From the NCBI GenBank assembly GCA_026392255.1, contig JAPLCJ010000049.1, positions 6,921 through 70,920 of the forward strand: a stretch of DNA of 64,000 nt, given 5' to 3'. Origin of the DNA: Solirubrobacterales bacterium. GTDB lineage: Bacteria > Actinomycetota > Thermoleophilia > Solirubrobacterales > Solirubrobacteraceae. Shown here in pieces: positions 21,201 to 57,278 of the stretch; the first letter of the stretch is position 1, and every line of letters starts with the position of its first letter. Made by a program: the position numbers and the translations under genes. Under the pieces are notes generated by a model that did not search any database, was not told the origin of the DNA, and worked only from the letters and a program-made list of their open reading frames with translations.

Positions 21201-22728
21201 AGTAGTTGAACAGCGGCGGCTGACGATCAGAAAGCACGGCAAGTGCCGCGTCGTTGCCCATCGAGGCGGTGGGCTCTTCTCCGGCGGCGGCCATTGGCGC
21301 AATGACCAGACGCATGTCTTCCTGCGTGTATCCGAATGCAAGCTGGCGCAACCTGAGTGGCTCTTGACGGGGAAGGTCAGGCTCCTGATCAGGAAGATCG
21401 TCTAGGCGAACTGACGACGCTTCAACCCACTCGCGGTAAGGCTGACGGCTGGCGACGGATTCCTTCACCTCGGCATCGCTGACAATCCGGCCACCCTCGA
21501 CATCGACGAGGAAAACCCGGCCAGGCTCAAGCCGACCCTTTCGGATGATCTGGTCGGGCTCAAGCGGAAGTACGCCGGCCTCGGACGCAAGAATGACCAT
21601 GCCGTCAGCCGTCTGGACCCAGCGACCTGGGCGAAGGCCGTTGCGGTCCAGTGTTGCGCCAATCGACCTGCCATCGGTGAAGACCACGGCTGCTGGTCCG
21701 TCCCACGGCTCCATCATGCAGGAGTGGAAGTCGTAGAAGCCCTCGAGATCCGGGCCTACTCCCTCGCGTCCCTTGTAAGCCTCAGGGAGCATCATCATCG
21801 CAGCGTGTGCAAGCGACCTACCTGAGTGCACCAGCAACTCAAAGACGTTGTCGAGGGAGGCCGAATCGCTGCCGCCAGGCCTGACTGCAGGGAGGATCTT
21901 GCTGATGTCGTCGCCGAAGAGGTCGCTCTCCATCTGACTCTCACGCGCACGCATCCAGTTGACGTTGCCTCGAAGGGTGTTGATCTCGCCGTTGTGGGCG
22001 ATCATCCGGTACGGATGTGCCAGCTCCCATGAGGGGAACGTGTTCGTTGAGAAACGGGAGTGGACCACCGCGAGTCGAGTAGCCATCAAAGGATCACGCA
22101 AGTCAGGGAAGTAGCCGGGAAGCTGAGGCGAGGTGAGCATTCCCTTGTAGACGAGGGTTCGCGAGGAGAAGCTAGCGATCGCAAGTTCGCTGCCAACTTC
22201 CTTTTCAATCACTCGGCGGATCACATAGAGACGGCGCTCAAGCTCATCCTGGTCCACAACACCCTCACCGGCCCCAACCAGAACCTGACGGAAGGTAGGT
22301 GCAGACGCCAAAGCCGTTTCCCCGCAGTGCCTGCGATCAACTGGGACAGTCCGCCAGGCAAGGACTTCTTGGCCCTCATCTGTAATGACGCGCTCAACGA
22401 TTGCTTCCATCGCCTCTCGCTGCCGGTCATCGGTTGGCATGAACAGCTGTCCAACGCCGTAGCTGCCGGCATCTGGAACTACCGAGCCGAAGGCTGACCG
22501 GAGGAACTGGTCGGGAATCTGAATCAGAATGCCGGCGCCGTCACCCGTGTCGGGGTCGGCTCCCGCAGCACCGCGATGCTCAAGATTGGCAAGTGCAACC
22601 AGAGCCCGTTCAACCACACCGTGGCTGGGGCCTCCAACAAGCTGTGCAACAAAGGCAACGCCACAGGCGTCGTGCTCGTATTGCGGGTCGTAAAGCCCGG
22701 ACCGTCCGGGTCGCGTCGTCATTTCCAT
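18208..22728 (-). CDS. gltB: Glutamate synthase large subunit
   Basis: 1506 aa. The amidotransferase N-terminus reads [15 protein letters not shown] and GXGXG domains are present throughout. Confidence 0.97.
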
Positions 22729-22847
22729 CTTCCCTGCTGGTGGTAGGCGCGTCGGCGCGGATTGTCAGGTGATTGCCGAGGCAGTTTAGCCCGAAAAGGC
22801 CCCAGAGCGGATTTTGGGCGCATCGCAACCCATGCTGCAGCCGTTGG

Positions 22848-25800
22848 TTAGCCGTCAGGAGCCACGAGGCGATCGGTCGCCTCAAGGTCCCATGAGCAGA
22901 GTCGGCCGCGGGCGGGGCAGCCACTACAGGTCCCAACCCACGGCTTTTCAGTAACCGGAACATTGCCAGCAAGGAGCGGAGCTGCCCGCTCGCCAAGGCT
23001 GCTAGCTAGCGAAACAAGATCCTCAGAAGTGAACCGAACGGAAACAGGCTCATCGGGACGCTCTGCGTAGAGATGGATGACCTCAACCCCGTCGCCCGAT
23101 TCACCAACTGCAGCTGAACTGAGCGCCGCCAAGCCATAGGCCTGACGCTGGATTGAGTAGTCCCGCGCTACCAAAGCCTCAAGATCCTCAGCCTCTGCGG
23201 CCCCGGCGCTGGTCTTCCAATCCACCACCACTGGGCCACCACCGTCGCTTGTCGCAAATACATCGAAGATTCCCCTCAACGGAATGGAGTCATCGCCGCA
23301 GTCAAGCTTGACCACAAATCCCTCTTCCCGCGAAACCCTTCCCCCGACAGCGCTGATCTCGCGCAGCCTCGCCCAAGTCTTGGAGCCGATGATGCCGGCG
23401 GCAAGGTCACTGACATGGCTGGCCTCCTCGTCAGTGATTGAGATGTCGGCGATGTCAGCCTCGGCCTTCGCATCCGCAGCGGTCGGGACCGGACCATCCA
23501 GCGGCGCGTTCTCGAGTAGTCCATGCAGAATCACTCCACGCTCGTTTGGCCGCAGACCCGCTTCAGGCGCTGGCCCGGAGGACCTGGCTTCCCCAACGGG
23601 GCTGAGCTCAATGATGTTTTCCGCGTACCAGCGGAACGCGCACTTCCCAGCGGTTTGAAGGCCGCTGTAGGAGAGCGAGGACGGACGCAATGGCACGGCC
23701 TTCGGGTTGAGGGCGCCTTCGACCGGGTGAAGGTCGGGCTCGACACTTGTTGCAGGCACCTGCGGAATTGCCTTGAGCATGGCTTCAAGCCCCTGACCCG
23801 AGTCAACTGTCACATCCATCGTGGCCCCGCCGAGATACGTCTCGGTCCACGCGCCCGGCTCCCCTTCAGCTCCCGCGCCAGCGCAATGAGTTGCCAAGCC
23901 AGGGATCAGCTCCGCGTCGATCATCCGACTCAAGTTTGTGTTGCTACCACCCGCTCCCTGTGGCTTGGGAGCATCGACCGGCCCCTTGCTGAAGGTCCCG
24001 GAGAGGATCAACCGGCGCTGGGGCCGAGTGAACCCGACGTACATGATCCTCATCTCCTCAGCAACATCAGATGCCTTCTCCTGATCAACGAACTCCTGAT
24101 CAGCAAAAGTTGCCACGGCCTTGGCGCCAATCATCTCCCGCCACCTGAACAGGAGATTGCTCCCGTCTGCGCTGACTGAGAGCACCGCCGAGTCGTTGTT
24201 CGCGCCGCGGCCAAGGTCAACAAGCACGGTCAATGGGAACTGCAATCCCTTCGCCTGATGGATGGTCATCAGCCGCACCGCACCTTCCGACCCGCCGGCT
24301 TGCTCAACGACTGCCTCGCCATCGCGCTTGTTGTCAGCGCCAGCGAGCCGCAGGTCAGCCTCACGAGCGAATGCGGCGGGATCAGCCCCATGTTCAGCCT
24401 CCCAAGCAGAGGCGAGGGCCTGCATCCTGCGCACGTTGGCAAAGCGCCGGTCCCCAGCGGGGAGTCCGAGGAGGTAAAGGTCATAGCCGGTTTCGATCAG
24501 GGCAGCCTCAATCGCATCAGACAGAGACCGCCGTCCAGCCAGCGCGCGCTGCTGAGCAAACCAGGGAACAAAGCGATCGCGGATGCCTGCGTCCTCGTCA
24601 TCCAGCACAACGGTGCCGAGGGCTTCAATCAGAGGCACCTCTTTGTCTCGAGCCTCTCCCGCAACCAGCACCAGTGCGTCAACCGACAGACCGCAAATCG
24701 GCGAGTACAGCATGTGGAAGAACCTCTCCTCATGGCAGGCGTTGCCAGTTGAGGCAAGCAAGGCCACTAAGTCTGAGACCTCCGGGCGAATCCAGAGCCC
24801 GCCTGCTCCCTCAATCGTTGCTGGGATCCCAAACGATCGCAACGCCTCGGCGAAGGGCTTGAGCCCACTGACTGCTCTGGCAAGGACAGTCACATCGGAT
24901 GCTGCGTAGCCAGCAGTCTCATCGTCCAGCAAGTCCTTGATGCGCCGCGCAACAGCTGCGGCTTCCGCATCGCGCCAACCGTTTCCGACGATCGAGTCCA
25001 GCCACACCGGTGGGTCGTGCTCGTCAGCCAAAACTGCCTTGATCTGATCCCGATCTTCAAGGATCAGCTCAACCCGGTTGTCCTCTCGGACATTTGCCTC
25101 GCCGGCAGTGAGCGTAAGAAGCCCTTCCAGGTTCTGAGCGTCGAAGATGTGGTTGTTGGTTTCAAGAATCGGTGACCGCGAGCGGAAGTTTGTGGTCAGC
25201 TCGAACCGGCGTTCACGCCCACCAAGCTCATTGGCCCGCTGCTCGAAGATCTCAACCTCGGCGTGCCGGAAGCGATAAATCGATTGGGCCACGTCCCCCA
25301 CCGAGTAGTACTTGCCCTCCGGTGAAATCAGCCCAATCAGCTCGGACTGAATGCGGTTGATGTCCTGGGCCTCATCGAGGAAGACACGCTGGAACCGCGC
25401 GCCGGCAGGTCTCCAGTCACCAGTGTTGCCGTCCTTGGCTGCACTATCGCGGCGCTCTCTCAGGATCCTCAGGCTGAGAAGCGCCAGATCTGAAAAGTCG
25501 AGTAGGCCTGCATCAGCCTTCATCTCTGCGTAGGACAGGTCCCACTCCTCAAGTAGCGCTGCCATCAGAGTCAGGTCGGGGAGAGCGCAGAGGTTGGCTA
25601 CCTGTCCAGCCAGGATTCCCAGAGCATCATGCAGAGCCGCGCGCACCTCGCTACCCCCAAGGAGCTTCCCGGTCCCAGCAAGAAATTTATCCGGCGCACT
25701 CTGAGCGGTGTGCGGGGTCATGATCGAGATCAGCTCCGCCTCGGCCTGCCGGTTCTCGATTGTCTTGTTCGTTGCCCAGTCAGAGGACTCGGCAAGGAAC

Positions 25801-26459
25801 TGCTGGGCGAGAGCCTTCGCGGTCTCTAGCGTTGTCTCAACGGACTCCTTGGCCTCGGCCTCATCAGGGACGCCAAGCCGCGGGTGTTCCTCCCCACCAG
25901 TCCGCAGCCGAGCATGGACCGACCTGATGTTGCTCTCAAGTGATGCTCGCGGGTTGTCGTCGTAGTTGGCCAGCAGCTCGAGGGCGCTCTGACCGTGTTT
26001 CTCCTGAAAGCGTTCGAGCGTCACTGCCCAGGCCCGGCCGACAAGCTCAGGGTCTGACTCGTCAACAATCTTGAACCTCGGGTCAATCCCAAGCTCGAGG
26101 GCATTACGACGAACCATGCCCTGACAGAACCCGTCAATGGTCGAAACTTCGGGTTCCTCATCAGGGATCGGTGGTGGCGTGTCGAGCCCATCGCGGAGCC
26201 GGATCAGAGCAAGCGTCCGTGAACGAATCCGGTCGCGCATCTCTGCCGCAGCCTTCCGAGTGAATGTGATCGCAAGAACTTCGCTCGGTTTGACCGGCTC
26301 ACCAGTTGCCAATTTGTCAACCGTGACTGACAGCGCAACACACTCCGCAAGGACTCCGGTCTTGCCGCTTCCTGCTCCGGCGACAATCACCGCCTCGTCG
26401 TGGCGTGCCTCAATCGCAACGGCCTGCTCAGCCGTCCAGCTGCGGGTCGGATCGATCAT
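22848..26459 (-). CDS. UvrD/AddA-type ATP-dependent helicase-nuclease subunit (AddA/AdnB-like) with a C-terminal PD-(D/E)XK nuclease
   Basis: It has the Walker A motif VAGAGSGKTGV and UvrD motifs. The C-terminus reads GKCAFRWY...FDVFATSDGGGPVVVDWKTS...QRQAYGL...CSGCPARGRLC. The ATG at 26459 overlaps the upstream stop as ATGA (26456-26459). The track start at 26480 is a GTG without an SD. Confidence 0.85.
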   Translation of the reverse strand: MIDPTRSWTAEQAVAIEARHDEAVIVAGAGSGKTGVLAECVALSVTVDKLATGEPVKPSEVLAITFTRKAAAEMRDRIRSRTLALIRLRDGLDTPPPIPDEEPEVSTIDGFCQGMVRRNALELGIDPRFKIVDESDPELVGRAWAVTLERFQEKHGQSALELLANYDDNPRASLESNIRSVHARLRTGGEEHPRLGVPDEAEAKESVETTLETAKALAQQFLAESSDWATNKTIENRQAEAELISIMTPHTAQSAPDKFLAGTGKLLGGSEVRAALHDALGILAGQVANLCALPDLTLMAALLEEWDLSYAEMKADAGLLDFSDLALLSLRILRERRDSAAKDGNTGDWRPAGARFQRVFLDEAQDINRIQSELIGLISPEGKYYSVGDVAQSIYRFRHAEVEIFEQRANELGGRERRFELTTNFRSRSPILETNNHIFDAQNLEGLLTLTAGEANVREDNRVELILEDRDQIKAVLADEHDPPVWLDSIVGNGWRDAEAAAVARRIKDLLDDETAGYAASDVTVLARAVSGLKPFAEALRSFGIPATIEGAGGLWIRPEVSDLVALLASTGNACHEERFFHMLYSPICGLSVDALVLVAGEARDKEVPLIEALGTVVLDDEDAGIRDRFVPWFAQQRALAGRRSLSDAIEAALIETGYDLYLLGLPAGDRRFANVRRMQALASAWEAEHGADPAAFAREADLRLAGADNKRDGEAVVEQAGGSEGAVRLMTIHQAKGLQFPLTVLVDLGRGANNDSAVLSVSADGSNLLFRWREMIGAKAVATFADQEFVDQEKASDVAEEMRIMYVGFTRPQRRLILSGTFSKGPVDAPKPQGAGGSNTNLSRMIDAELIPGLATHCAGAGAEGEPGAWTETYLGGATMDVTVDSGQGLEAMLKAIPQVPATSVEPDLHPVEGALNPKAVPLRPSSLSYSGLQTAGKCAFRWYAENIIELSPVGEARSSGPAPEAGLRPNERGVILHGLLENAPLDGPVPTAADAKAEADIADISITDEEASHVSDLAAGIIGSKTWARLREISAVGGRVSREEGFVVKLDCGDDSIPLRGIFDVFATSDGGGPVVVDWKTSAGAAEAEDLEALVARDYSIQRQAYGLAALSSAAVGESGDGVEVIHLYAERPDEPVSVRFTSEDLVSLASSLGERAAPLLAGNVPVTEKPWVGTCSGCPARGRLCSWDLEATDRLVAPDG

Positions 26460-29432
26460 CGCATCGTCCGGCAGAGCCACTCGTAGCTACAGCCACCGTC
26501 GTAGCTGCAGTGGGCGGGGTCAGAATGCAAGAGGCCATCGCGGATTCCCATGACAGCATCACGGGCCCTCTTCCTGGCCGAATCAATCAGCGCTTGAAGC
26601 TCATCCTCCGACACAGCGTCCTTGCCCCTGTCATTGAGAGCTGAGGCTCCGGGAACACCTTCCACAATTGCGCCTCGCATCTTGCGATCCTTGACCGACT
26701 CATAGAGAGCGGCCGCTGGCTTGCCTCCAAGCAGCTGAATAGCCGCCAGTAGGTAGATCGGGGCCTGGAGGCGACGCTCTGACTCCCACTTCTCCTGTGC
26801 CCAAATGGTCTTCCCGCTTTTGTAGTCACGCACGAGGAGAGTTCGCTCCCCGTCGGCCTCAATGACATCAATCCGGTCCACGGTGCCGCGCAACTTGATC
26901 CCATCGCCGAGGTCGAGTGGGTCTCTGGCCTCTCGGCCTGTCTCTGGGTCGGCCTCACAGCCAAACTCGAACTCAACCTCAATTGCCTTCGCTGGCCAGT
27001 CTCGAGAACACTCAAGATCAAGCCACTGGAGTGACAGTGTCTCCGCGCGCTGAAGGGCCACGCGGGCCGCGAGTGTGTTGGCCGACTCTTTGCCGATCTT
27101 GGCGATTGCCTCGGTGATGGCCTTCTTGGCCGCTTCCATCACGGCAGGCTCGATCCGACCGTCGCCTTCCTCAATGGCAACCTCGACGGCGCGTTGCAGC
27201 GCGAAGTGGACAGCTGTCCCTCTAAACGTTGGCTCCCCTTCGGGCTCCATCTCCTTGGGACCGAGGACATTCTGCCCAAGCCATTTCAGAGGACAGTCGC
27301 AATAGGCCTCGAGGCGACTGGGTGACACGACCTTCTCGTATTCACTACCGATCTGAGCTCGGGCAGCCTCCCCCAGCTCGGGCAGCCTCCCCCAAGGTCG
27401 CCGGCAGGTCACGCACTCTGGAGCCACCAGCCTCGTTGGCTAGTAAGCGAAGTTTGAGCCGTCCGCCCTCGGTGTCCCCAATCGGTTGCACAGTCCCGGC
27501 CGAGCGGTCTGGCTTGCGCTCGGCGAAGGCCTCAAGGTCATAACCCAGCAGTCGCAGTACCTCGTCTTGATAAGCGGAGCTGGCCACTTGAGCCCCGGCG
27601 TCGTCACGCACTCGCCTGACAAGAATCACGCACTTCCGGGCTCGAGCAAAACAAGCAATGAAGCGCTCTTTCTCCCCCGCCTCTTGCCTTCCGGCAGCGC
27701 TGGAGTAACGGATGTCGTTCTGCTCGTCAGCTGGCAGGCGCGCCTCTCCTAGACAGTCGGCTGGCGTGTCTCCCAGGAACGGGTCGTGACCCGAGGCGGC
27801 GGGGAACAGACCGTGTTCCAACCCGTAGACAACAACTGCGTCAACTCTGCGTCCCCGAATCGATGACGGGTCGGTGAACAGAACCGCGCCCGTTCGTGCC
27901 GAACCCGTGTCAATGTCGACCTCAAGCGCACCGAGTTCCTCGATCATCGTCTGAGGATGGTCACGGTCAAAGAGCTCGGCCAAGTCAAGGGCTGACTTGG
28001 CGACCGTCGATACAACCGCCGCGTCAAAGAGCGTGTCCCGCTTCAGGCGCTCGCCGCGACTGACCGGCCCGGCACGCAGAAGCTCGTCGGCCGCCGTCGC
28101 GAGCGCGTCAGCAAGGTCCTTCTTGCTGGCATGCCTTGCGAGCCGTCGTCCCGTCTCAAGTTGCTCACCAATCTGGACGTCCCATGAACGGAGTACCTCT
28201 TCAGCTGAATGCACGCCCTTACGGCGAAGCTCAGCCTCAATTCGGTCCACAATCAGTGCACGCTCGGCCCCCGCTACCACCCGGACCCAGGCAAGGCCGT
28301 CCTCCAGCGTGGCTAGGTCAGCCTGGAAGGAAGCCCGACAGAGGCCGATCAGCCCCCGACCGAGCGTCGTGGCTCCCAGCGGGGCGGACTCGGGACGAGC
28401 TACGTCCACTCCCGAAAGGTTGAGTATTGATTCCAACAGCGCATCTCCATCGGCGTGTGGCCGCACAACTGCGATTGCCTCCGGTGCCATGCCGTCCTGG
28501 ATCAGTTCCAAGACTGCACCAGCCGCAAGCTCCGCAGTGGCACGCGCACCTGATCCGGTCAGGATCCGCACGCTGCTTCCATCATCAGTCACCACACTGC
28601 CCGCTGAATTGGAGAAGAGCTTGTCGGCCAGCTGGCCCAGCACGCCATTGGACTCTGGGTCAGAGTCAAGCAGCGTTTCCTTAACCTCAAGTCCGTTCCC
28701 AGCGCCTGCCTTGAGCCTGAGTGCCGCGGTCTGCGCGACGCCAACTCTGCGGTCGGTTTCAGTTGGGAGCGACACCATTACGTCCGTGCCATGCGCAAGC
28801 GCCTTGATCGTCTCCACCTGAACTGCAGTGAGGTCCGAGAAGCCGTAGAACAGGACCGGCTCCGACCCACCTATCGCGGGCGACATTCTCAGAGCGTCGA
28901 GTGAACGTCGGGCCTGAAGGTCACGGTCAGTTATCTCCCCGCCGGCAAGCCGCTCGAAGTAGGCGCGAACCAGACTCATCGTCGCGGCTGCGCGTGAAGG
29001 GCTGCTCTCGGACAGCATTTCCTCAAGCAGGTCGTCAAGAACCAGTCCGCGTGAGTGCTCCACAACCAGTCGCTCAAGTGCGATCGGGAACCCGGGAGCA
29101 CGGGCGGAATCAGTAATCCCTCCCAGAGACTTGTTGGCAAGGCCCGCCTCTACAACCTCGCGGACAATCAGCCTGCGCCGAAGCGGACCAATCAGCCTGC
29201 CCTTAACACCGCCGCGTCTAGCCAAATCACGGACGAACCGCTCCCACGTGACCACGCGACCACCGATCAGTGCTCCGTCCTCGAGGAGCTCATTCTCATA
29301 GGTCTCGCGGTCTGCGCCCGTGGGCACGACAAGCACTGGTGCTGAGCCTGATTCCGCTTCGGCGCGGAACCGGGACAGGACTACCCCCGCCTTTGAGGCG
29401 TTGGCCGGTCCAAGAATCAGGTCGAGAGGCAT
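26456..29432 (-). pseudogene. AddB/AdnA-like helicase-nuclease subunit, split into 695-aa and 323-aa ORFs by a 19-bp tandem duplication
   Basis: The N-terminal ORF (29432-27345) has a degenerate Walker A (LILGPANASKAG) and helicase-like domains. The C-terminal ORF (27427-26456) has an AddB/Cas4-like nuclease (SRLEAYCDCPLKWL, DRIDVIEADGERTLLVRDYKSGK, LQAPIYL, HCSYDGGCSYEWLC). Deleting one copy of the 19-mer joins them in frame: ...DLPATLGEAARAQIGSEYEKVVSPSRLEAYCDCP... The result is a 985-aa protein. Confidence 0.85.
27356..27394. repeat. Perfect tandem duplication of a 19-bp unit (agctcgggcagcctccccc, two copies plus 1 nt)
   Basis: Read directly from the sequence: copy 1 is 27356-27374 and copy 2 is 27375-27393, and they are identical. 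Confidence 0.97.
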
Positions 29433-29484: not shown

Positions 29485-31818
29485 TCAGTCCTGCTCCGCG
29501 GCTGTGTCGATGGCGTCCGGCTCAACACTGGGCGCCGGCTCCTTCTTGGCAGCAGGCTTCTTCTTCGAGGCCGGCTTCTTCTTGGCAGCAGGCTTCTTCT
29601 TGGCAGCAGGCTTCTTTTTCGCAGCAGGCTTCTTGGCAGCTCCTGGAGCCGCCTTCTCAGCTGCTTCCTCTTCCAGCACGGCAGGCGGCTTGTAGCCGTC
29701 CTTGGCCCAGGCCTCGTCAAACTCGACCCGCCAGCGACCTTCCTCGTTCTGGAACAGCGCAAGCTTGGCTCGGAAGGACTTCCCGGCACGGCTTCTAAAC
29801 CCAGTTACCTGACGCTCGGTCTTGCCCGTGCGGATCAGTTCCTTGACGATCGTTGAATTCATTGTCTTGCCAGCCTTGGCCTTCCAGATCACAAACCCAC
29901 AGCCCGGATCATCCTTGGCCCAGCAGGAGTAGCCCTTGCGGTTCTCCATGATGTCGGCGCCACAGATTGGGCAGTGACCAAGGTTTGCCCTTGGCATGCG
30001 GACTCCTTCAAGCTTCTCGTCCAGCATCGCCACGGTCTCCTTGGCAAAGGCTGCGATGTCGCCGATGAAGGCGTCCTTCTTCTCCTCACCCTTGGCGATC
30101 TTCTCTAGACGCGCTTCCCACTCACCAGTCAGTGCGGGTGAGGTGAGGGGGTGATCACCGAGCAGGCGGATTACGTTGACGCCCTTCTCAGTGCAGACAA
30201 GAGCTCGGCCGTCACGTTCGATGTAGCCACGGGCGATCAGTGTCTCGATGATCCCGGCTCGCGTGGCTGGCGTGCCGATGCCCGACTCCTTCATTGCCTC
30301 GCGGGCCTCTTCGTCGTCAACCTCCTTGCCGGCGGTCTCCATTGCCTCAAGCAGCTTGCCGTCTGAGTAGCGCTGTGGCGGCTTAGTTTCCTTGCGCTCT
30401 CCCTCAACGCTGAGCACCTTGACCTGCTCGCCCTCCGTCAGCTTGGGAAGCAACTCATCCGAGCGGGGGTCACCGTCAATACCGCGCCAACCTGGGACAG
30501 CCAAGACCCGGCCTCGGGTGCGGTACTTGTAACCAGCTACCTCGGTCTCCAAGGTGGTGTTCTCCGCAATCGAATCCGGATGGAAGACAGCGAGGAACCT
30601 GCGAGCCACAAGGTCGTAGATCTTGCGCTCGTCTTCACTGAACTTGGCGATTGGATGCGAGTCAGTGTTGGTCGGAATGATGGCGTGGTGGTCGCCGACC
30701 TTTTCGTTGTTGACAACTTTTCCAATCGGCAGCGAGTCCAGCCCGATCACGAAAGTGGCCGCCTGGGCGTATTCGCTTGATGTGCGACCGACGACTTCTG
30801 CGATCTGCTTGATCTCCGGGACCATGTCTGTTGTCAAGTAACGGGAGTTGGTCCTTGGGTAGGAGAGCGCCTTGTGCTGCTCATATAGCTTCTGGGCGGC
30901 GCTGAGTGTCCTCCGGGCAGTGAATCCGTAGCGACTGCTGGCCTCCCTCTGCAAGGAGGTGAGGTCGAACAGGAGCGGTGCCTTGTCGCGGCGCTCACGC
31001 ATCTCAAGCCTGACGACGGTGCCTTGGCCATCACGTGTGGCCTCTACTGCCTCGTCTGCAAGCTTCTCCTCAGCTAGACGATCGCCGACCTCGGCCATCA
31101 GCACACCGCTATAGACCTCGCCAGCATCAGTGCTGAAGCTGGAGGTGACCTGCCAGTAAGGAACTGGGATGTGAGCGGAGATCTCCTCCTCACGGCGAGC
31201 GAGGATCGCAAGCGTCGGGGTTTGTACCCGGCCTAGCGAGACAGCGCCGTCAAACGATGTGCGAAGGCGAATTGTTGCTGCGCGGGTTGCATTCATGCCG
31301 ACTATCCAGTCAGCCTCCTGTCGCGCTCTGGCGGCTGATTCGAGGGGCTCAAGCTCCACACCTGGCCGGAGATGACCAAACGCATCCTCGATCGCTGCCT
31401 TAGTCATCGATGCAAGCCAGAGGCGTTGAACGGGAAGATCGCACTTGGCTTGGTGGTAACAGAGCGCAAAGATCAGCTCGCCCTCTCGCCCTGCGTCGCA
31501 AGCGTTAATGACAGCGTCGACGTCATCCCGCTTGAGCTGGCGCTTAACGATGTTGAATTGCACCTTGGAGCGGTCGTCAACTACGTGCTTGAACTTGAAG
31601 CCGTCAGGAACGATGGGGAGCTCCTCCATCTTCCAGCTCTTCCACTTCTTATCGTAGTCCTCGGGTTCAGCCAGCTGGACGAGGTGGCCAACCGCCCAAG
31701 TGATGACGTGGTCAGGCCCTTCAAGAAAGCCCTTCCCTTTTTTGAATGGGCCGGGCAGCACTCGAGCCAGGTCGGTGCCTACGGAAGGTTTCTCAGCGAG
31801 TACGACTGTCTTTGCCAT
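29485..31818 (-). CDS. topB: Type IA DNA topoisomerase, TopB (topoisomerase III)-like, with a zinc ribbon and a KKPAAK-repeat tail
   Basis: The N-terminus MAKTVVLAEKPSVGTDLARVL...ITWAVGHLVQLAEPEDY...ACDAGREGELIF...RLWLASMT closely resembles Bacillus TopB as I recall it. The C-terminus has CPICGADIMENRKGYSCW and AAKKPAAKKKPAAKKKPAAKKKPASKKKPAAKKEPA. Confidence 0.9.
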   Translation of the reverse strand: MAKTVVLAEKPSVGTDLARVLPGPFKKGKGFLEGPDHVITWAVGHLVQLAEPEDYDKKWKSWKMEELPIVPDGFKFKHVVDDRSKVQFNIVKRQLKRDDVDAVINACDAGREGELIFALCYHQAKCDLPVQRLWLASMTKAAIEDAFGHLRPGVELEPLESAARARQEADWIVGMNATRAATIRLRTSFDGAVSLGRVQTPTLAILARREEEISAHIPVPYWQVTSSFSTDAGEVYSGVLMAEVGDRLAEEKLADEAVEATRDGQGTVVRLEMRERRDKAPLLFDLTSLQREASSRYGFTARRTLSAAQKLYEQHKALSYPRTNSRYLTTDMVPEIKQIAEVVGRTSSEYAQAATFVIGLDSLPIGKVVNNEKVGDHHAIIPTNTDSHPIAKFSEDERKIYDLVARRFLAVFHPDSIAENTTLETEVAGYKYRTRGRVLAVPGWRGIDGDPRSDELLPKLTEGEQVKVLSVEGERKETKPPQRYSDGKLLEAMETAGKEVDDEEAREAMKESGIGTPATRAGIIETLIARGYIERDGRALVCTEKGVNVIRLLGDHPLTSPALTGEWEARLEKIAKGEEKKDAFIGDIAAFAKETVAMLDEKLEGVRMPRANLGHCPICGADIMENRKGYSCWAKDDPGCGFVIWKAKAGKTMNSTIVKELIRTGKTERQVTGFRSRAGKSFRAKLALFQNEEGRWRVEFDEAWAKDGYKPPAVLEEEAAEKAAPGAAKKPAAKKKPAAKKKPAAKKKPASKKKPAAKKEPAPSVEPDAIDTAAEQD
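29541..29640. repeat. In-frame tandem repeats of about 18 bp encoding (KKPAAK)n in the topB 3' end
   Basis: The plus strand shows reiterated cttcttggcagcaggctt units. Confidence 0.8.
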
Positions 31819-31867
31819 CGGCGCGGCACAGTAGCGGCCATTGAAGGTGAACCAAGGTCTGGCCTAC

Positions 31868-33025
31868 TCAGCGCCCACACGGACCCGTAGGGTCCCGCTT
31901 GCCAGATTTGGCACGTAGAAGCTCCTTGCTGACAACTGATGGTGGAATGGAAAAGCCCCCTTGCGGCCCGCCACCATTGGTTCTAGCGAAGACGGTGCCG
32001 ACCACACGACCACGCTGGTCAATGACCGGACCACCCGAATTTCCGGGCTTAACATTGCCCCGCAAGATTGTGATTGTCCGTCGCACCTTCTTGCGTCCAT
32101 AAGCATCTTGTGTAATTGCGAGCAGCGTTTGCCCGACCCGCGCTGCCGAGGTCGTAAAGGCACCGTCTAACGGATAACCAAGGATCACAGCCGTTGTCCC
32201 CGCTTTCGGGTCCGACCCAATCCGAAGGGCGGGAACAGAGAGCCCTGGGACTCCGATAACAGCGACGTCATCATGCCTGTTGAAGGTCAGGACACCTGAA
32301 CTCAGACCCAAGCCGCTACCTCCCACCTCAACCGACGGGGAGCCATCCCCAGCGACGACATGAGCGTTGGTGACCACAAGCCCTGGCCCAGCAACCCAGC
32401 CCGTGCCCTCCACTGAGAAACCACATGCCTTAGCTCTGATCCGAACCACCCCAGCCCGATCAGCCCTAACAGCACTCGACTTCAGAATTGCAGGGTCTGG
32501 CTTGCCCACCAGCACCGGAGTCAGCCCACTAACCGCTGGAAGAGGGTCAAAGGCACTGATCCACCCCAACAGCTGATCCGCCGGGGGCGCGACACCGCCA
32601 ATAAGGGACACGACCTGAGATGCCCGGATCTCTCTTCTTACCGAATCCAACCCTGGGAGTTGCACCACGACGACTGCTCCAAGCCACACGACAGCTACGC
32701 CCACCACTAGGCCAAAAATGCCGCCTAGGAGGCGGTCGAACATTCCCACGAAGGGGAGCGGCAACGCCTTTCGGAGCTTGATGCCAACTCGTTCCAAAAC
32801 GATCGCCATCCCAGCACCACCCACCGCTGCGCCAATCAGGGCGATCATCGGTGCATAGGGCGAGCGCTCACCTTGCTCCAAGAGCAGCGGGGCAAGGCGC
32901 GCGGCCAGAAGTGCCCCGCCAAAGAATCCAGCCAAGGAAAGCGCTCCGCCAATAAGACCCGCGCGTCGTCCTTGCCACCCCGTCAGGCCGATGACGGCGA
33001 TGAGAATCCAGTCGAAAGTGGTCAT
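31868..33025 (-). CDS. MarP-like membrane serine protease (CvpA domain fused to an S1C trypsin-like domain)
   Basis: The N-terminal TM region reads MTTFDWILIAVIGLTGWQGRRAGLIGGALSLAGFFGG (CvpA-like). The C-terminus has TNAHVVAG and GNSGGPVID, the catalytic His and Ser motifs. The start is trimmed to the ATG at 33025. Confidence 0.8.
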   Translation of the reverse strand: MTTFDWILIAVIGLTGWQGRRAGLIGGALSLAGFFGGALLAARLAPLLLEQGERSPYAPMIALIGAAVGGAGMAIVLERVGIKLRKALPLPFVGMFDRLLGGIFGLVVGVAVVWLGAVVVVQLPGLDSVRREIRASQVVSLIGGVAPPADQLLGWISAFDPLPAVSGLTPVLVGKPDPAILKSSAVRADRAGVVRIRAKACGFSVEGTGWVAGPGLVVTNAHVVAGDGSPSVEVGGSGLGLSSGVLTFNRHDDVAVIGVPGLSVPALRIGSDPKAGTTAVILGYPLDGAFTTSAARVGQTLLAITQDAYGRKKVRRTITILRGNVKPGNSGGPVIDQRGRVVGTVFARTNGGGPQGGFSIPPSVVSKELLRAKSGKRDPTGPCGR

Positions 33026-33103: not shown

Positions 33104-34846
33104 ATGAGCAAGCCACTCCCGCCAAGTGACCCAATCGCCCTGCGCCGCAAGGCTGCTGTCGGCCTCAGCGCACTCGCACTGACAGCGATCGTCGCAGCTG
33201 GCTTGATCTGTGGTGACGACGGTGGAAGAGGGGTCGCGAGGAGCTACGCAGCCGCTTGGGCACGGCAGGACTTCCAGGCCATGTACAGCCAACTTTCCAA
33301 GGAATCCAAAGCGAAGCTGAGCTTCACGAGCTTCTCTACCCAGCAGTCCGAGGCGCTCGCCACTGCCACCGTTAGGCGCCTCACCGCCCACGACGCAGGG
33401 AAGGTCTCTGACAACGCTTCCCAAGTCCCCTTCACAGTTGAAACCCGCGCATTTGGAACTCTCAGACTCACTGCTCGGATCCCGTTGACCGCCGACAACT
33501 CCGATGCCAGTGTTGTTTGGAGTTCAAGCCTTCTGCTTCCGGGATTGCGCCGAGGTGAGTCCCTCAGTCGAACGACCTCGCTTCCCCCGCGCGCTGCACT
33601 CATTGCCGCTAATGGCGTTGCCCTCGCTGAGGGTCCTTTCCGCGTTTCAACAATCCCAGAGGTCGCATCTGAAGTCGTGGGAACCGTCGGCTCACCGGTG
33701 GGAGGCATCGGCTTGACCCTTAAGGGACTTGGCTATCCGGCAGATGCAGCCGTTGGAATCACCGGTTTGGAGCGCATCTTCCAGTCGAAACTTGCTGGGA
33801 CGCCCGGAGGCACGCTCTCCGCTGGAGCCAGACTGCTGGCAAACACCACACCCAAGCAAGGCAGAGCTGTCCGCACCACGATCGTGCCCTCCATCGAGCT
33901 AGCTGCAATCACTGCCATGGCTGGGCGTCAAGGTGGAGCAGCCGTGATCAGACCCAACACGGGCGAGATTCTGGCGCTCGCACGCAGTGCGTTCTCGGAA
34001 GTGGCCCCGCCGGGCTCAACGTTCAAGATCATCACCGCTGCCGCCGCGCTCGATTCCAAGGTTGCCACCCTCAAGACCGTCTACCCAGCTGCAACGAAAA
34101 CCGTCCTAGATGGGCATTCCATCCAGAACGCCAATGGCGAGTCATGCGGCGGGACCCTCGTCCAGAGCTTTGCGTATTCCTGCAACTCAGTCTTTGCTCC
34201 TCTGGGAGTCAAGGTTGGCGCAGCGCGACTCGTTGAGATGGCTGAGAATCTTGGCTTCAACCGCCCGCTCAAGAATATCCCCGGCGCATCGATCAGCCGG
34301 ATCCCCCAGGCTTCGGAGCTTCAAGGGGCTGATGCCGCCGGAACCAGCTCGATCGGACAAGGTCAAGTTGTTGCCTCAGCGCTAGAGATGGCCAGCGTTA
34401 CGGCGACGGTCGCAAACGGCGGAGTTAGAGCAGAGCCAACCCTAACCCTAGTCACTAGGCCCACAGCCACTAAGCGGGCGATGAGTCCAGAAGTCGCAAG
34501 GGCCATGCGGACGCTCATGCTTGCCGTTGTCAAATATGGAACAGGCATGTCTGCTGCCATCCCGGGCGTTGCCATTGCTGGCAAGACGGGTACAGCTGAG
34601 ATACGCAACACAGTCCCAATCGACCCCAATAACCCCGTGGACCCGAACGAACCCGTTGATCCAAATACCCCACTGGTTATCCCTAATGATCCGGCAAACA
34701 CTGACGCATGGTTTGTCGCATTCGCCCCTGCTTGGCATCCACGGATTGCGGTCTGCGTCCTGCTCGACGGAGCCGGACATGGTGGCGACACGGCGGCACC
34801 AGCAGCACGCGACATCCTCGTCGCGGCCCTTAAGAACCGCCGTTAA
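33104..34846 (+). CDS. Class B penicillin-binding protein (transpeptidase)
   Basis: It has the SxxK (GSTFKI), SxN (SCNSVF) and KTG (GKTGTAE) motifs and an N-terminal TM anchor. The start is trimmed to the ATG at 33104 (MSKPLPP). The longer track ORF overlaps the divergent marP-like gene. Confidence 0.9.
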   Translation: MSKPLPPSDPIALRRKAAVGLSALALTAIVAAGLICGDDGGRGVARSYAAAWARQDFQAMYSQLSKESKAKLSFTSFSTQQSEALATATVRRLTAHDAGKVSDNASQVPFTVETRAFGTLRLTARIPLTADNSDASVVWSSSLLLPGLRRGESLSRTTSLPPRAALIAANGVALAEGPFRVSTIPEVASEVVGTVGSPVGGIGLTLKGLGYPADAAVGITGLERIFQSKLAGTPGGTLSAGARLLANTTPKQGRAVRTTIVPSIELAAITAMAGRQGGAAVIRPNTGEILALARSAFSEVAPPGSTFKIITAAAALDSKVATLKTVYPAATKTVLDGHSIQNANGESCGGTLVQSFAYSCNSVFAPLGVKVGAARLVEMAENLGFNRPLKNIPGASISRIPQASELQGADAAGTSSIGQGQVVASALEMASVTATVANGGVRAEPTLTLVTRPTATKRAMSPEVARAMRTLMLAVVKYGTGMSAAIPGVAIAGKTGTAEIRNTVPIDPNNPVDPNEPVDPNTPLVIPNDPANTDAWFVAFAPAWHPRIAVCVLLDGAGHGGDTAAPAARDILVAALKNRR

Positions 34847-35421
34847 AGGTCGAGACTGATGACTGCGGCTGGCTTCTTGCCTGACGCCGAGTCGTAAATC
34901 TCAAGAACGAGTGGACGGTTCTGGTACACGTCGTTACTCAGCTTGAAGAGAAGAAGTGCGCCCTCACGAACAGGACCTGATCCCGCGATGGACGAGGCCG
35001 ATGGGTAAATCCAGTCGGGCTTAAGCGCCTCGGTTGGGTTCCACGCAAAGATGTTTGTCGCTGTGTTAAGCGCGATCGGCGTGTAGCGCTTGTCGGTTGT
35101 GTCAACCAGCTTGAACTTGGTTGCGAGCTTGGTATCGCTGTTGCCAAAGTTCTGGGCACGCAGAAATACCGCGAACCACTGCTCGCCAGGGCCAGGGGGA
35201 ACAGTCCCTGCCGGCAGCCCGACCAGGTAGCTGGCGTCCTCTGGAAGCTTCGAATTCAACGTCCGTGAAATCTGAACCTGATAGGCGACATCGTTGATGT
35301 CAACGTAAGCACCCTCGCCAGCGCCGACCGTCACATTCTCAGTCGAGCCGCAGGCAGAAGTGCCTGCTGCGAGGCACAGTGCGGCTACAACCGGAAGGAT
35401 TCTGCGAGGGGCGTTAATCAC
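34843..35421 (-). CDS. Putative lipoprotein (DUF4352-like beta-sandwich?)
   Basis: There is a lipobox LCLAAGTSAC after a basic N-region. The GTG start at 35421 avoids overlap with the upstream SRPBCC gene, but the start is uncertain (the track ATG is at 35529). Confidence 0.55.
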   Translation of the reverse strand: MINAPRRILPVVAALCLAAGTSACGSTENVTVGAGEGAYVDINDVAYQVQISRTLNSKLPEDASYLVGLPAGTVPPGPGEQWFAVFLRAQNFGNSDTKLATKFKLVDTTDKRYTPIALNTATNIFAWNPTEALKPDWIYPSASSIAGSGPVREGALLLFKLSNDVYQNRPLVLEIYDSASGKKPAAVISLDL

Positions 35422-44445: not shown

Positions 44446-45003
44446 CTAGAAGCCGCGGGGATGGCGCACTGCATAACCAGAGCCGGAGCGCATGGTCTTC
44501 TGCCAACGAGACTTGGCAGAGCTTGCGCCCGAGGTATCAAAACGAGCTCCGGCTACAACCATGAAGACATGGCCGCCGTTGGCGTAAATCGTGATCCATT
44601 GGCCTTTGCCACGATCACCGAAGCTTGCGAAGTCACCCGACACCATTGTCTGCCGGAGCAGCCCACCGCCGTGTAGCGCAACTCCAACTGAACCTGAGCA
44701 GTCGTAACCCCTAGCCAACCATGCTGCATGGCCGCCACCCCAGATGTAGGGAAGTGAGCGGATCTTGTTGCCGGCCCAGATGACCTGCTTGACGGCAAGT
44801 GGCGCTGCTGCGGGCGCATAGGCAAGCCCACTCTTGATAACCACGCGACTACCAGCGACTGTTGGGGTTTTTGGCGTGGAGATAACGGGTGGGGCAGGAT
44901 CGCCAGGCGAGGCGCCGCCAGTGGCGTCATCTGCAAGGGCAGACGGAACCATGACAAGCATGGCCAAAATCGCTGCTGTGGATGTTGTACGGAAAATTTG
45001 CAT
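44446..45003 (-). CDS. Secreted NlpC/P60-like (C40) cell-wall hydrolase
   Basis: It has a signal peptide, YIWGGGH...GYDCSGSV (Cys nucleophile context) and GHVFMVV (His). Confidence 0.7.
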   Translation of the reverse strand: MQIFRTTSTAAILAMLVMVPSALADDATGGASPGDPAPPVISTPKTPTVAGSRVVIKSGLAYAPAAAPLAVKQVIWAGNKIRSLPYIWGGGHAAWLARGYDCSGSVGVALHGGGLLRQTMVSGDFASFGDRGKGQWITIYANGGHVFMVVAGARFDTSGASSAKSRWQKTMRSGSGYAVRHPRGF

Positions 45004-45009
45004 CTGTTC

Positions 45010-45140
45010 GGTTGCCGCCGGAGTTAGCTGTCGGGCTGGCGCTGAACTTGCGCCTCCCGCGACTCTTGCGCGGGATTAGCCCCATGGGATCTTGGGTCCC
45101 CCGGTCACCTGACTTGACGTCAGGTCATTAGGCACGGATA
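45010..45140 (-). promoter_or_regulatory. ydaO/yuaA-type (cyclic-di-AMP) riboswitch in the 5' leader of the NlpC/P60 gene
   Basis: The minus-strand RNA reads GUGCCUAAUGACCUGACGUCAAGUCAGGUGACCGGGGGACCCAAGAUCCCAUGGGGCUAAUCCCGCGCAAGAGUCGCGGGAGGCGCAAGUUCAGCGCCAGCCCGACAGCUAACUCCGGCGGC. It contains the hallmark blocks GGGGGACCCA, GGGG..AAUCC and CCCG.CAGCUAAC in the right order with the expected intervening hairpins. This was compared from memory with the B. subtilis ydaO leader. Confidence 0.8.
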
Positions 45141-45228
45141 AAACTACCACAGGTTCGGACGGAAGCTCCAGCCCCGGCCAGACCGTCGGACCTGCGCCAA
45201 GTGGCCGTGAGAGGTAAGATCAGCCTAG

Positions 45229-49757: not shown

Positions 49758-50500
49758 CCGCAGCAGCAAACGGTGAAGTAACCCTCTGGGCACGCTCAGA
49801 CGCGTCTGCAGACCGAGCACGTGGAGTGATCGAGAAGCTCTCAGGCAAGCTCGACGACGCAGACCGCGCAGCACGCGTCACCGTCACCACCGACCTAGCT
49901 GACCTCGCCGGATCGACCTATGTTGTTGAGGCAATCGTCGAGGAGCTTGAGCCCAAGAAGGCCATGCTCGCCGAGATCGCCGCAATCGTTGGAGACGGCA
50001 CAGTTATCGCCTCCACAACATCCTCACTTCCAGTCGCCGAACTCTCCGCTGCCAGCGGCCAGTCCGATCGGTTCGCAGCACTCCATGTGTTCAACCCAGT
50101 CCCACAGATGAAGCTGATCGAACTCTGCTTCCCTGATGAGGCAAATGAGGACACAAAGGCCCGCACCCGTGCACTCTGCGACGAGCTTGGCAAGACTGCC
50201 GTCGAGGTACCCGACGTTCCAGGCTTCGTTGTCAACGCACTCCTCTTCCCTTACCTGTTCCACGCGGTCGAGCATTCGGAGAAGACCGGCATTGCCCCAG
50301 CCGACATTGACACCGCCATGAAGCTCGGAGCCGGCCACCCAATGGGACCAATGGCGCTCCTCGACTTTGTAGGGCTTGACGTGTCAGCAGCAATCGGTGA
50401 CGAGATCGGTGCGACCGTGCCTCAGAAGGTTCGTGACCTGATCGCCGCCGGAGACCTTGGCCGCAAGACCGGCAAGGGCCTTCTCGACTGGAGCCGCTAA
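49700..50500 (+). CDS. 3-hydroxyacyl-CoA / 3-hydroxybutyryl-CoA dehydrogenase
   Basis: It has IAGSGAIATG (a Rossmann motif), VEAIVEELEPKK, TSSL and FHVFNPVPQMKLIE. There is a strong SD (AAGGAGAG). Confidence 0.9.
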   Translation: MGEKLGIAGSGAIATGLAVTAAANGEVTLWARSDASADRARGVIEKLSGKLDDADRAARVTVTTDLADLAGSTYVVEAIVEELEPKKAMLAEIAAIVGDGTVIASTTSSLPVAELSAASGQSDRFAALHVFNPVPQMKLIELCFPDEANEDTKARTRALCDELGKTAVEVPDVPGFVVNALLFPYLFHAVEHSEKTGIAPADIDTAMKLGAGHPMGPMALLDFVGLDVSAAIGDEIGATVPQKVRDLIAAGDLGRKTGKGLLDWSR

Positions 50501-50511
50501 GCAGCCCAGCC

Positions 50512-50620
50512 AAAACGAGAAGCCGACCCTAAGGTCGGCGCTGTCATAGAAAACGAGAAGCCGACCTTACGGTCGGCGCTGTCATAGAAAACGAGAAGCC
50601 GACCTTACGGTCGGCTTCTC
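50512..50620. repeat. 38-bp tandem repeat (about 2.7 copies). Each copy carries a GCCGACC-N4-GGTCGGC hairpin, and the last copy forms a 12-bp-stem terminator.
   Basis: Copy 1 is 50512-50549 and copy 2 is 50550-50587; they differ at 2 positions, both in the loop. Partial copy 3 starts at 50588 and ends as GAGAAGCCGACC-ttac-GGTCGGCTTCTC (50594-50621). On the minus strand each hairpin is followed by CGTTTTC. Confidence 0.9.
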
Positions 50621-57204: not shown

Positions 57205-57278
57205 GCCGGAGTAGCTCAGCTGGTCAGAGCACCTGTCTTGTAAACAGGGGGTCACGAGTTCGAATCTCGTCTCCGGCT
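57205..57278 (+). tRNA. tRNA-Thr (anticodon UGU)
   Basis: Folded by hand: acceptor GCCGGAG/CTCCGGC, D-arm GCTC-AGCTGGTCA-GAGC, anticodon arm CCTGT-CTTGTAA-ACAGG, variable GGGTC, T-arm ACGAG-TTCGAAT-CTCGT, discriminator T. No CCA is encoded. Confidence 0.95.

Follow-up and report, generated by a model that had tools for sequence, protein, structure and literature searches.

The window analysed here is a 64,000-nucleotide (nt) stretch of DNA from a Solirubrobacterales bacterium (contig JAPLCJ010000049.1, positions 6,921 to 70,920 of the forward strand). On its minus strand lies a gene for a distant AddB-type helicase-nuclease subunit (addB), followed by a gene for an AddA-like partner (addA), and the addB reading frame is interrupted by a perfect 19-bp tandem duplication. 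The features at the locus are as follows, where ORF is open reading frame and aa is amino acids:

27356..27374, minus strand: 19-nt unit, copy 1 (plus strand AGCTCGGGCAGCCTCCCCC; gene sense GGGGGAGGCTGCCCGAGCT)
27375..27393, minus strand: 19-nt unit, copy 2, identical to copy 1; a single copy encodes residues 680 (third base) to 686, (L)GEAARA
27345..29432, minus strand: addB 5' fragment ORF of 695 aa, composed of 686 native residues (ADDB_N region and linker) and 9 out-of-frame residues (GGGCPSSDR)
26456..27427, minus strand: addB 3' fragment ORF, 323 aa at its longest, which carries the nuclease motifs and four Cys residues
22848..26459, minus strand: AddA-like partner gene of 1203 aa with UvrD-helicase, UvrD_C and PDDEXK_1 domains and the Walker A motif GAGSGKTG

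The two copies of the unit stand head to tail without a mismatch, and the tract reads ...gatctg AGCTCGGGCAGCCTCCCCC AGCTCGGGCAGCCTCCCCC aaggtc... on the plus strand. The junction between the copies is formed by ...GCCCGAGCT followed directly by GGGGGAGGC... Tandem Repeats Finder reports a period of 19, 2.1 copies and 100% matches for the tract; the extra 0.1 copy corresponds to one A at 27394, and the flanking microhomology is thus 1 base. When the window is randomised 100 times under a Markov-1 model, perfectly duplicated units reach at most 12 nt, so a perfect duplication of 19 nt is far beyond chance.

The repeat sits within the 83-nt overlap (27345-27427) of the 695-aa and 323-aa ORFs. Both copies together occupy nt 2040-2077 of the gene, with the unit beginning on the third base of codon 680, and the duplication adds 19 nt (+1 frame) at codon 680/681. 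The native frame is kept through Ala686 and is followed by GGGCPSSDR and, 9 codons on, by the stop codon TAG at 27347-27345. Deletion of one 19-nt copy yields a single uninterrupted ORF that reads ...DLPATLGEAARAQIGSEYEKVVSPSRLEAYCDCP... and encodes 985 aa, which is exactly the length of the orthologues. A first-pass annotation of this DNA had placed a 19-bp tandem duplication at the ORF overlap and had predicted that removal of one copy would fuse the fragments into a 985-aa protein; the coordinates, the identity of the copies and the restored ORF all agree with that description.

The repaired 985-aa protein is identified as a distant AddB-type subunit by Pfam models, a profile search of the PDB and a Foldseek comparison. 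Its N-terminus (residues 5-227) matches ADDB_N (PF21445) at 27.9 bits, just over the cut-off of 26.6, and its C-terminus (residues 696-982) matches PDDEXK_1 (PF12705) at 112 bits. The nuclease motifs are D846, D863-Y-K865 and Q883xxxY887, of which D846, D863, K865, Q883 and Y887 are invariant in an alignment of 24 homologues. Cys707, Cys969, Cys975 and Cys981 are all present (C707, C975 and C981 invariant in the same alignment), and these four residues, which bracket the nuclease domain, are putative ligands of an Fe-S cluster. The helicase-like N-terminus and four-Cys PD-(D/E)XK C-terminus of the first-pass annotation are thereby recovered, and of its two family labels, AddB and AdnA, the AddB type is supported. 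A profile built from the 24 homologues finds Bacillus subtilis AddB as its best match in the PDB (3u44_B, E 5.9e-48), with AdnA next (E ~1e-22). An AlphaFold2 model of the repaired protein (mean predicted local distance difference test score, pLDDT, of 82.5), used as a Foldseek query, retrieves chain B of B. subtilis AddB in the top five places (E down to 4e-33, template modelling score 0.50) and then AdnA (E 5e-21). AdnA is rejected as the closest relative, since its chains rank at least 12 orders of magnitude below AddB in fold E-value and lower still by profile. The NCBIfam equivalog cut-offs for AddB are missed by far (TIGR02773 addB_Gpos, 36.4 vs 903.7 bits; TIGR02786 addB_alphas, 26.6 vs 486.5 bits); thus, the protein belongs to a distant AddB-type lineage outside the curated Firmicutes and alphaproteobacterial subfamilies. 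The uninterrupted frame that a functional AddB subunit needs is broken in the window by the premature TAG.

The model and the alignment place the break in the linker that joins the helicase-like body to the Fe-S/RecB-type nuclease domain. Conservation and model confidence are lowest in a segment at whose end the break lies: pLDDT is only 48-59 for residues 641-680, and no position between R662/A665 and E702 is conserved among the 24 homologues. A break in an inter-domain linker is one of the observations that favour a functional split, in which AddB consists of two polypeptides, a helicase-like body and a nuclease domain with its own start, and still assembles with AddA. A second is the GTG at 27328-27326, which lies 16 nt past the premature TAG and corresponds to residue 696 of the intact protein, the first residue of PDDEXK_1, with a GAGAAGG stretch just upstream. 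A third is the intact ATGA link of the 3' fragment to addA: the addB TGA and the addA ATG (at 26459) overlap as ATGA in gcgATGAtcgat. Against such a split, the Shine-Dalgarno-like GAAGG ends just 2 nt from the GTG, and no conserved sequence feature indicates a programmed event. Re-initiation at GTG 27328 is conceivable but unproven. The premature TAG stands ~890 nt upstream of the addA start, and without re-initiation the ribosomes would stop there and never reach the ATGA, so that coupling into addA would be lost. Earlier it had been proposed that translation of the nuclease fragment and of AddA could continue. The underlying ATGA overlap is real, whereas the proposal itself is overstated because it hinges on re-initiation at this GTG.

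Upstream of addB lies a gene for topoisomerase III (topB) and downstream of addA a gene for glutamate synthase (gltB). The order topB-addB-addA-gltB is common to the closest relatives, and addB-addA to all relatives fetched. Four Cys residues likewise flank the nuclease domain of the AddA-like protein (GKCAFRW ... GTCSGCPARGRLC). Were they to bind metal, Fe-S-type nuclease domains would be present in both subunits of this actinobacterial enzyme; of the two B. subtilis subunits, only AddB has such a cluster.

Comparison with relatives places the disruption in the window alone. Fifteen related contigs were fetched, of which 13 span the site (L002 ends before it, and L001 is the same record as L006), and all 13 carry one copy of the 19-mer; a pattern search confirms the single copy in each of the eight close contigs. 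Nucleotide identity across the gene is ~95-96% for these eight (95.1% in a blastn alignment whose identity value includes the columns of the 19-nt gap) and 81% for the other five. When the gene is aligned by MAFFT with five contigs from both identity groups, the 19-nt insertion of the window accounts for the only gap across 2,977 columns. Intact 985-aa proteins occur in the same 90% protein cluster (P0001, P0026, P0029 and P0030), whose members derive from JGI, ENA, NCBI and Logan assemblies of freshwater samples. All full-length homologues (948-992 aa) read straight through the break point. The comparison with orthologues that had been called for as a check of the first-pass annotation therefore reveals no natural split at this point, and a programmed +1 frameshift or a naturally split gene is rejected, as the insertion is found in no orthologue. 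The 846-aa protein P0031 was considered as a second disrupted allele and rejected, since it is truncated by a 100-N scaffold gap and not by mutation.

The age of the event is constrained by L003, the closest of the long contigs. Its alignment with the window covers 18,975 bases at 96.0% identity and contains 736 substitutions and a single indel, the duplication; thus, the assembly is not generally indel-prone. The ratio of nonsynonymous to synonymous substitution rates (dN/dS), measured against L003, is 0.10 in the N-terminal part (residues 1-685), 0.06 in the C-terminal part (residues 686-985) and 0.094 in addA, and the gene has no other stops. Values at the level of addA imply normal purifying selection on the gene until the event. 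An established (old) pseudogene is not supported, given the lack of relaxed selection and of further stops or indels. The closest relatives read TAGGGGAGG where both copies in the window read TGGGGGAGG; thus, either the substitution came first and the duplication later, or the finished sequence was the source of the extra copy. Because the copies are identical, the indel is the only one in 19 kb and dN/dS is unrelaxed, the event is either very recent or non-biological. The very recent event of the first-pass annotation fits these same observations.

A non-biological origin merits attention in view of the source record. GenBank lists a protein identical to the 695-aa fragment under MCX6394615.1 ('MAG: hypothetical protein NTY57_07200 [Solirubrobacterales bacterium]'), from a contig of 148,636 bp. 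The entry for the downstream half is MCX6394614.1 ('PD-(D/E)XK nuclease family protein'), which has 290 aa and starts at GTG 27328-27326. The public annotation thus already shows the split as two coding sequences (CDSs), without a disruption flag. As the record is a metagenome-assembled genome (MAG), the sequence is a metagenome-assembled consensus and not an isolate genome. An assembly or consensus artefact, in which the organism has an intact single-copy 985-aa addB and the extra 19 bases were made in assembly, scaffolding, gap closing or polishing, is a serious possibility, though held only tentatively. Example routes are two ends that overlap by 19 nt and were abutted instead of merged, or a local reassembly error. 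If the assembler was IDBA-UD, whose default smallest k is 20, a 19-nt overlap would equal k-1. Perfect copies, a single indel in 19 kb and an otherwise undecayed gene are exactly the pattern expected of such an artefact, and the single copy in every site-spanning relative is in line with it. Documented faults of MAGs are local assembly errors, sequence duplicated where scaffolds are joined and incorrect numbers of repeats, especially with IDBA-UD, and 13 local assembly errors were found in one 1.13-Mb genome (Chen et al. 2020, PMC7111523).

Other observations argue against an artefact. The 64-kb window is free of Ns and of any other scaffold marks, and divergence from relatives does not switch at the site, being equal on both sides of the duplication against L003; thus, there is no sign of a scaffold or chimeric join, and a chimeric join at the site is rejected. 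Nor does the aligned 19 kb hold any other indel. At 38 bp, the tract does not reach the final k-mer length of commonly used de Bruijn assemblers, and assemblers with a final k >38 would not normally invent a 38-bp tandem that is absent from the reads, so that the two copies would normally have to exist in the reads.

A second assembly of the strain was sought as an independent view of the locus. The exact AddA protein is found on a Logan contig (L016, SRR20698643_71647) that corresponds to window 21344-26806 and is 99.78% identical to it (12 mismatches in 5,463 bp); this independent contig, from a near-identical strain, ends at 26806, 550 nt short of the duplication. Exact look-ups of the 695-aa fragment, the 290-aa fragment and the topB protein found no independent assembly, and the topB protein cluster holds no variant from the SRR20698643 sample. 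Guessed partial products of the neighbouring Logan contig gave no match, as did a control partial product of L016 itself, cut products not being indexed. A gapped pattern that accepts either allele, and then a junction-only pattern, found no match in JGI metagenome contigs; the pattern works on local loci, and the JGI collection is therefore simply without this lineage. A literature search on Sequence Read Archive run SRR20698643 returned no result.

The favoured reading, held with moderate confidence, is that the duplication is a real and very recent mutation, that it arose in one freshwater Solirubrobacterales population, in whose addB orthologue it was caught by a MAG consensus, and that the allele is loss-of-function or hypomorphic. 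Its product would be a 695-aa AddB without the nuclease/Fe-S domain. Coupling into addA would be lost or weakened, and the outcome would be a null or strongly hypomorphic AddAB double-strand-break resection enzyme, although some nuclease domain might arise by re-initiation at GTG 27328. Such an allele would be young, probably deleterious and transient, could revert precisely by loss of one copy and would not act as a regulated switch. With 1 nt of flanking microhomology, the sequence singles out none of slippage, template switching and staggered-break fill-in as the origin. Hairpins or quasi-palindromes that might drive the duplication were sought, and the DNA folds of the one-copy and two-copy versions are no better than those of shuffles.

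Several points weigh against a real mutation: (i) the source is an uncurated MAG in which both halves are deposited as ordinary CDSs, (ii) the error types described in PMC7111523 include duplicated sequence at joins and wrong repeat counts, (iii) the gene is under strong purifying selection (dN/dS 0.09), and a null allele would a priori be unlikely to predominate in a natural population, (iv) the near absence of microhomology (1 nt) leaves little to explain slippage, and (v) the two-copy junction is seen in no second assembly, JGI metagenome contigs having been scanned.

A reversible on/off polymorphism, which the first-pass annotation had offered as an alternative, would modulate recombination, DNA-end degradation or phage-DNA degradation in the population. 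Perfect tandem duplications can be lost precisely, with restoration of the wild type, and this property would suit a switch. On the other side, the tract holds just two copies of the 19-nt unit, unlike contingency loci, and neither a split nor a change in copy number occurs here in any of the 24 homologues or of the 13 contigs that span the site. With only two copies of the unit and a single copy in all 13 related contigs, the on/off proposal is not upheld. A phase-variable contingency locus is likewise not supported, as copy number does not vary among the 13 related contigs and the scan of JGI metagenomes yielded no other two-copy sequence. Taken together, a functional or switchable split is an unlikely explanation of the locus. 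The fuller claim, that the two-copy allele is real and is either kept beside the one-copy allele as a reversible AddAB switch or works as two polypeptides split at the linker, is highly improbable. If it were true, natural populations of an uncultured actinobacterial lineage would toggle or tolerate the loss of their main double-strand-break resection nuclease.

Additional features were noted in the window and its relatives. Divergence from L003 falls from ~4% to <0.5% at window 29958-31957 (topB), with 1, 3, 0 and 3 mismatches per 500 bp, and climbs again, up to 11%, around 34458-34957; this mosaic pattern near topB suggests recombination between lineages. Near the 3' end of topB (29485-31818), past the Toprim_Crpt domain, an 18-nt in-frame repeat of ~5.4 copies spans window 29537-29634 on the minus strand (perfect over 29573-29616), and its copy number is equal in L003, with no indel. 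On the plus strand, directly after a TAA at ~50498-50500, the 38-nt unit AAAACGAGAAGCCGACCTTACGGTCGGCGCTGTCATAG is repeated 2.7 times (two perfect copies) at 50512-50615. Each unit holds the hairpin GCCGACC-TTAC-GGTCGGC, the stem of the last copy extends to GAGAAGCCGACC/GGTCGGCTTCTC, and the array looks like tandem terminator-like hairpins. A cyclic di-AMP riboswitch (ydaO/yuaA leader, RF00379) lies at 44997-45144 on the minus strand (58.4 bits, over the gathering threshold), and the sole tRNA of the window is a tRNA-Thr (TGT) at 57205-57278 on the plus strand. In the related contig L015 (ENA MEHR18-2 scaffold_95), a 100-N gap at 2505-2604 removes the start of the addB orthologue and accounts for the 846-aa gene call P0031, which is an assembly-caused truncation in the same family.

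The main value of the locus is as a quality flag: MCX6394615.1 and MCX6394614.1 look unrelated and should be understood as the two halves of a single disrupted 985-aa AddB-type gene. Should reads confirm the duplication, the locus would offer a clean natural case, in an uncultured freshwater actinobacterium, of a core DNA-repair gene with a loss-of-function allele that has just arisen and can revert precisely, and a confirmed allele would be of modest interest for population genomics.

The closest known system is B. subtilis AddB (PDB 3U44/3U4Q/4CEH chain B). Like the protein studied here, it has an ADDB_N/UvrD-like body followed by a RecB-family PD-(D/E)XK nuclease that is bracketed by four Cys residues, which in B. 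subtilis bind a 4Fe-4S cluster; likewise, the gene here lies immediately upstream of, and adjoins, an AddA-like helicase-nuclease gene. By contrast, the two proteins share just ~14-15% identity and differ in length (1166 aa in B. subtilis vs 985 aa here), the Walker A-like site here is GPANASKA instead of GxxxxGK[ST], and the gene in the window is broken by the duplication. Mycobacterial AdnA, of the AdnAB system (PDB 6PPJ/7SJR chain A), is from the same phylum, shares the two-subunit motor-nuclease architecture and is the second-best PDB match by both profile and fold. It is nonetheless a weaker match than AddB, the N-terminus here fits ADDB_N and not the UvrD-helicase models, and the Walker A-like motif is degenerate in the protein studied here.

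The disruption itself belongs to a common class of event. It is a short tandem duplication that shifts the frame of a gene in a draft MAG, is either a newborn mutation or a local assembly error, and is not a new mechanism or a new biological feature. It resembles the ordinary frameshift pseudogenes and split-gene calls of draft genomes and MAGs in that two adjacent same-strand CDSs sum to an intact orthologue and in that the cause is a short perfect duplication with a length that is not a multiple of three. It differs from them only in the gene affected and in its cleanness, as the sole indel in 19 kb with no other decay.

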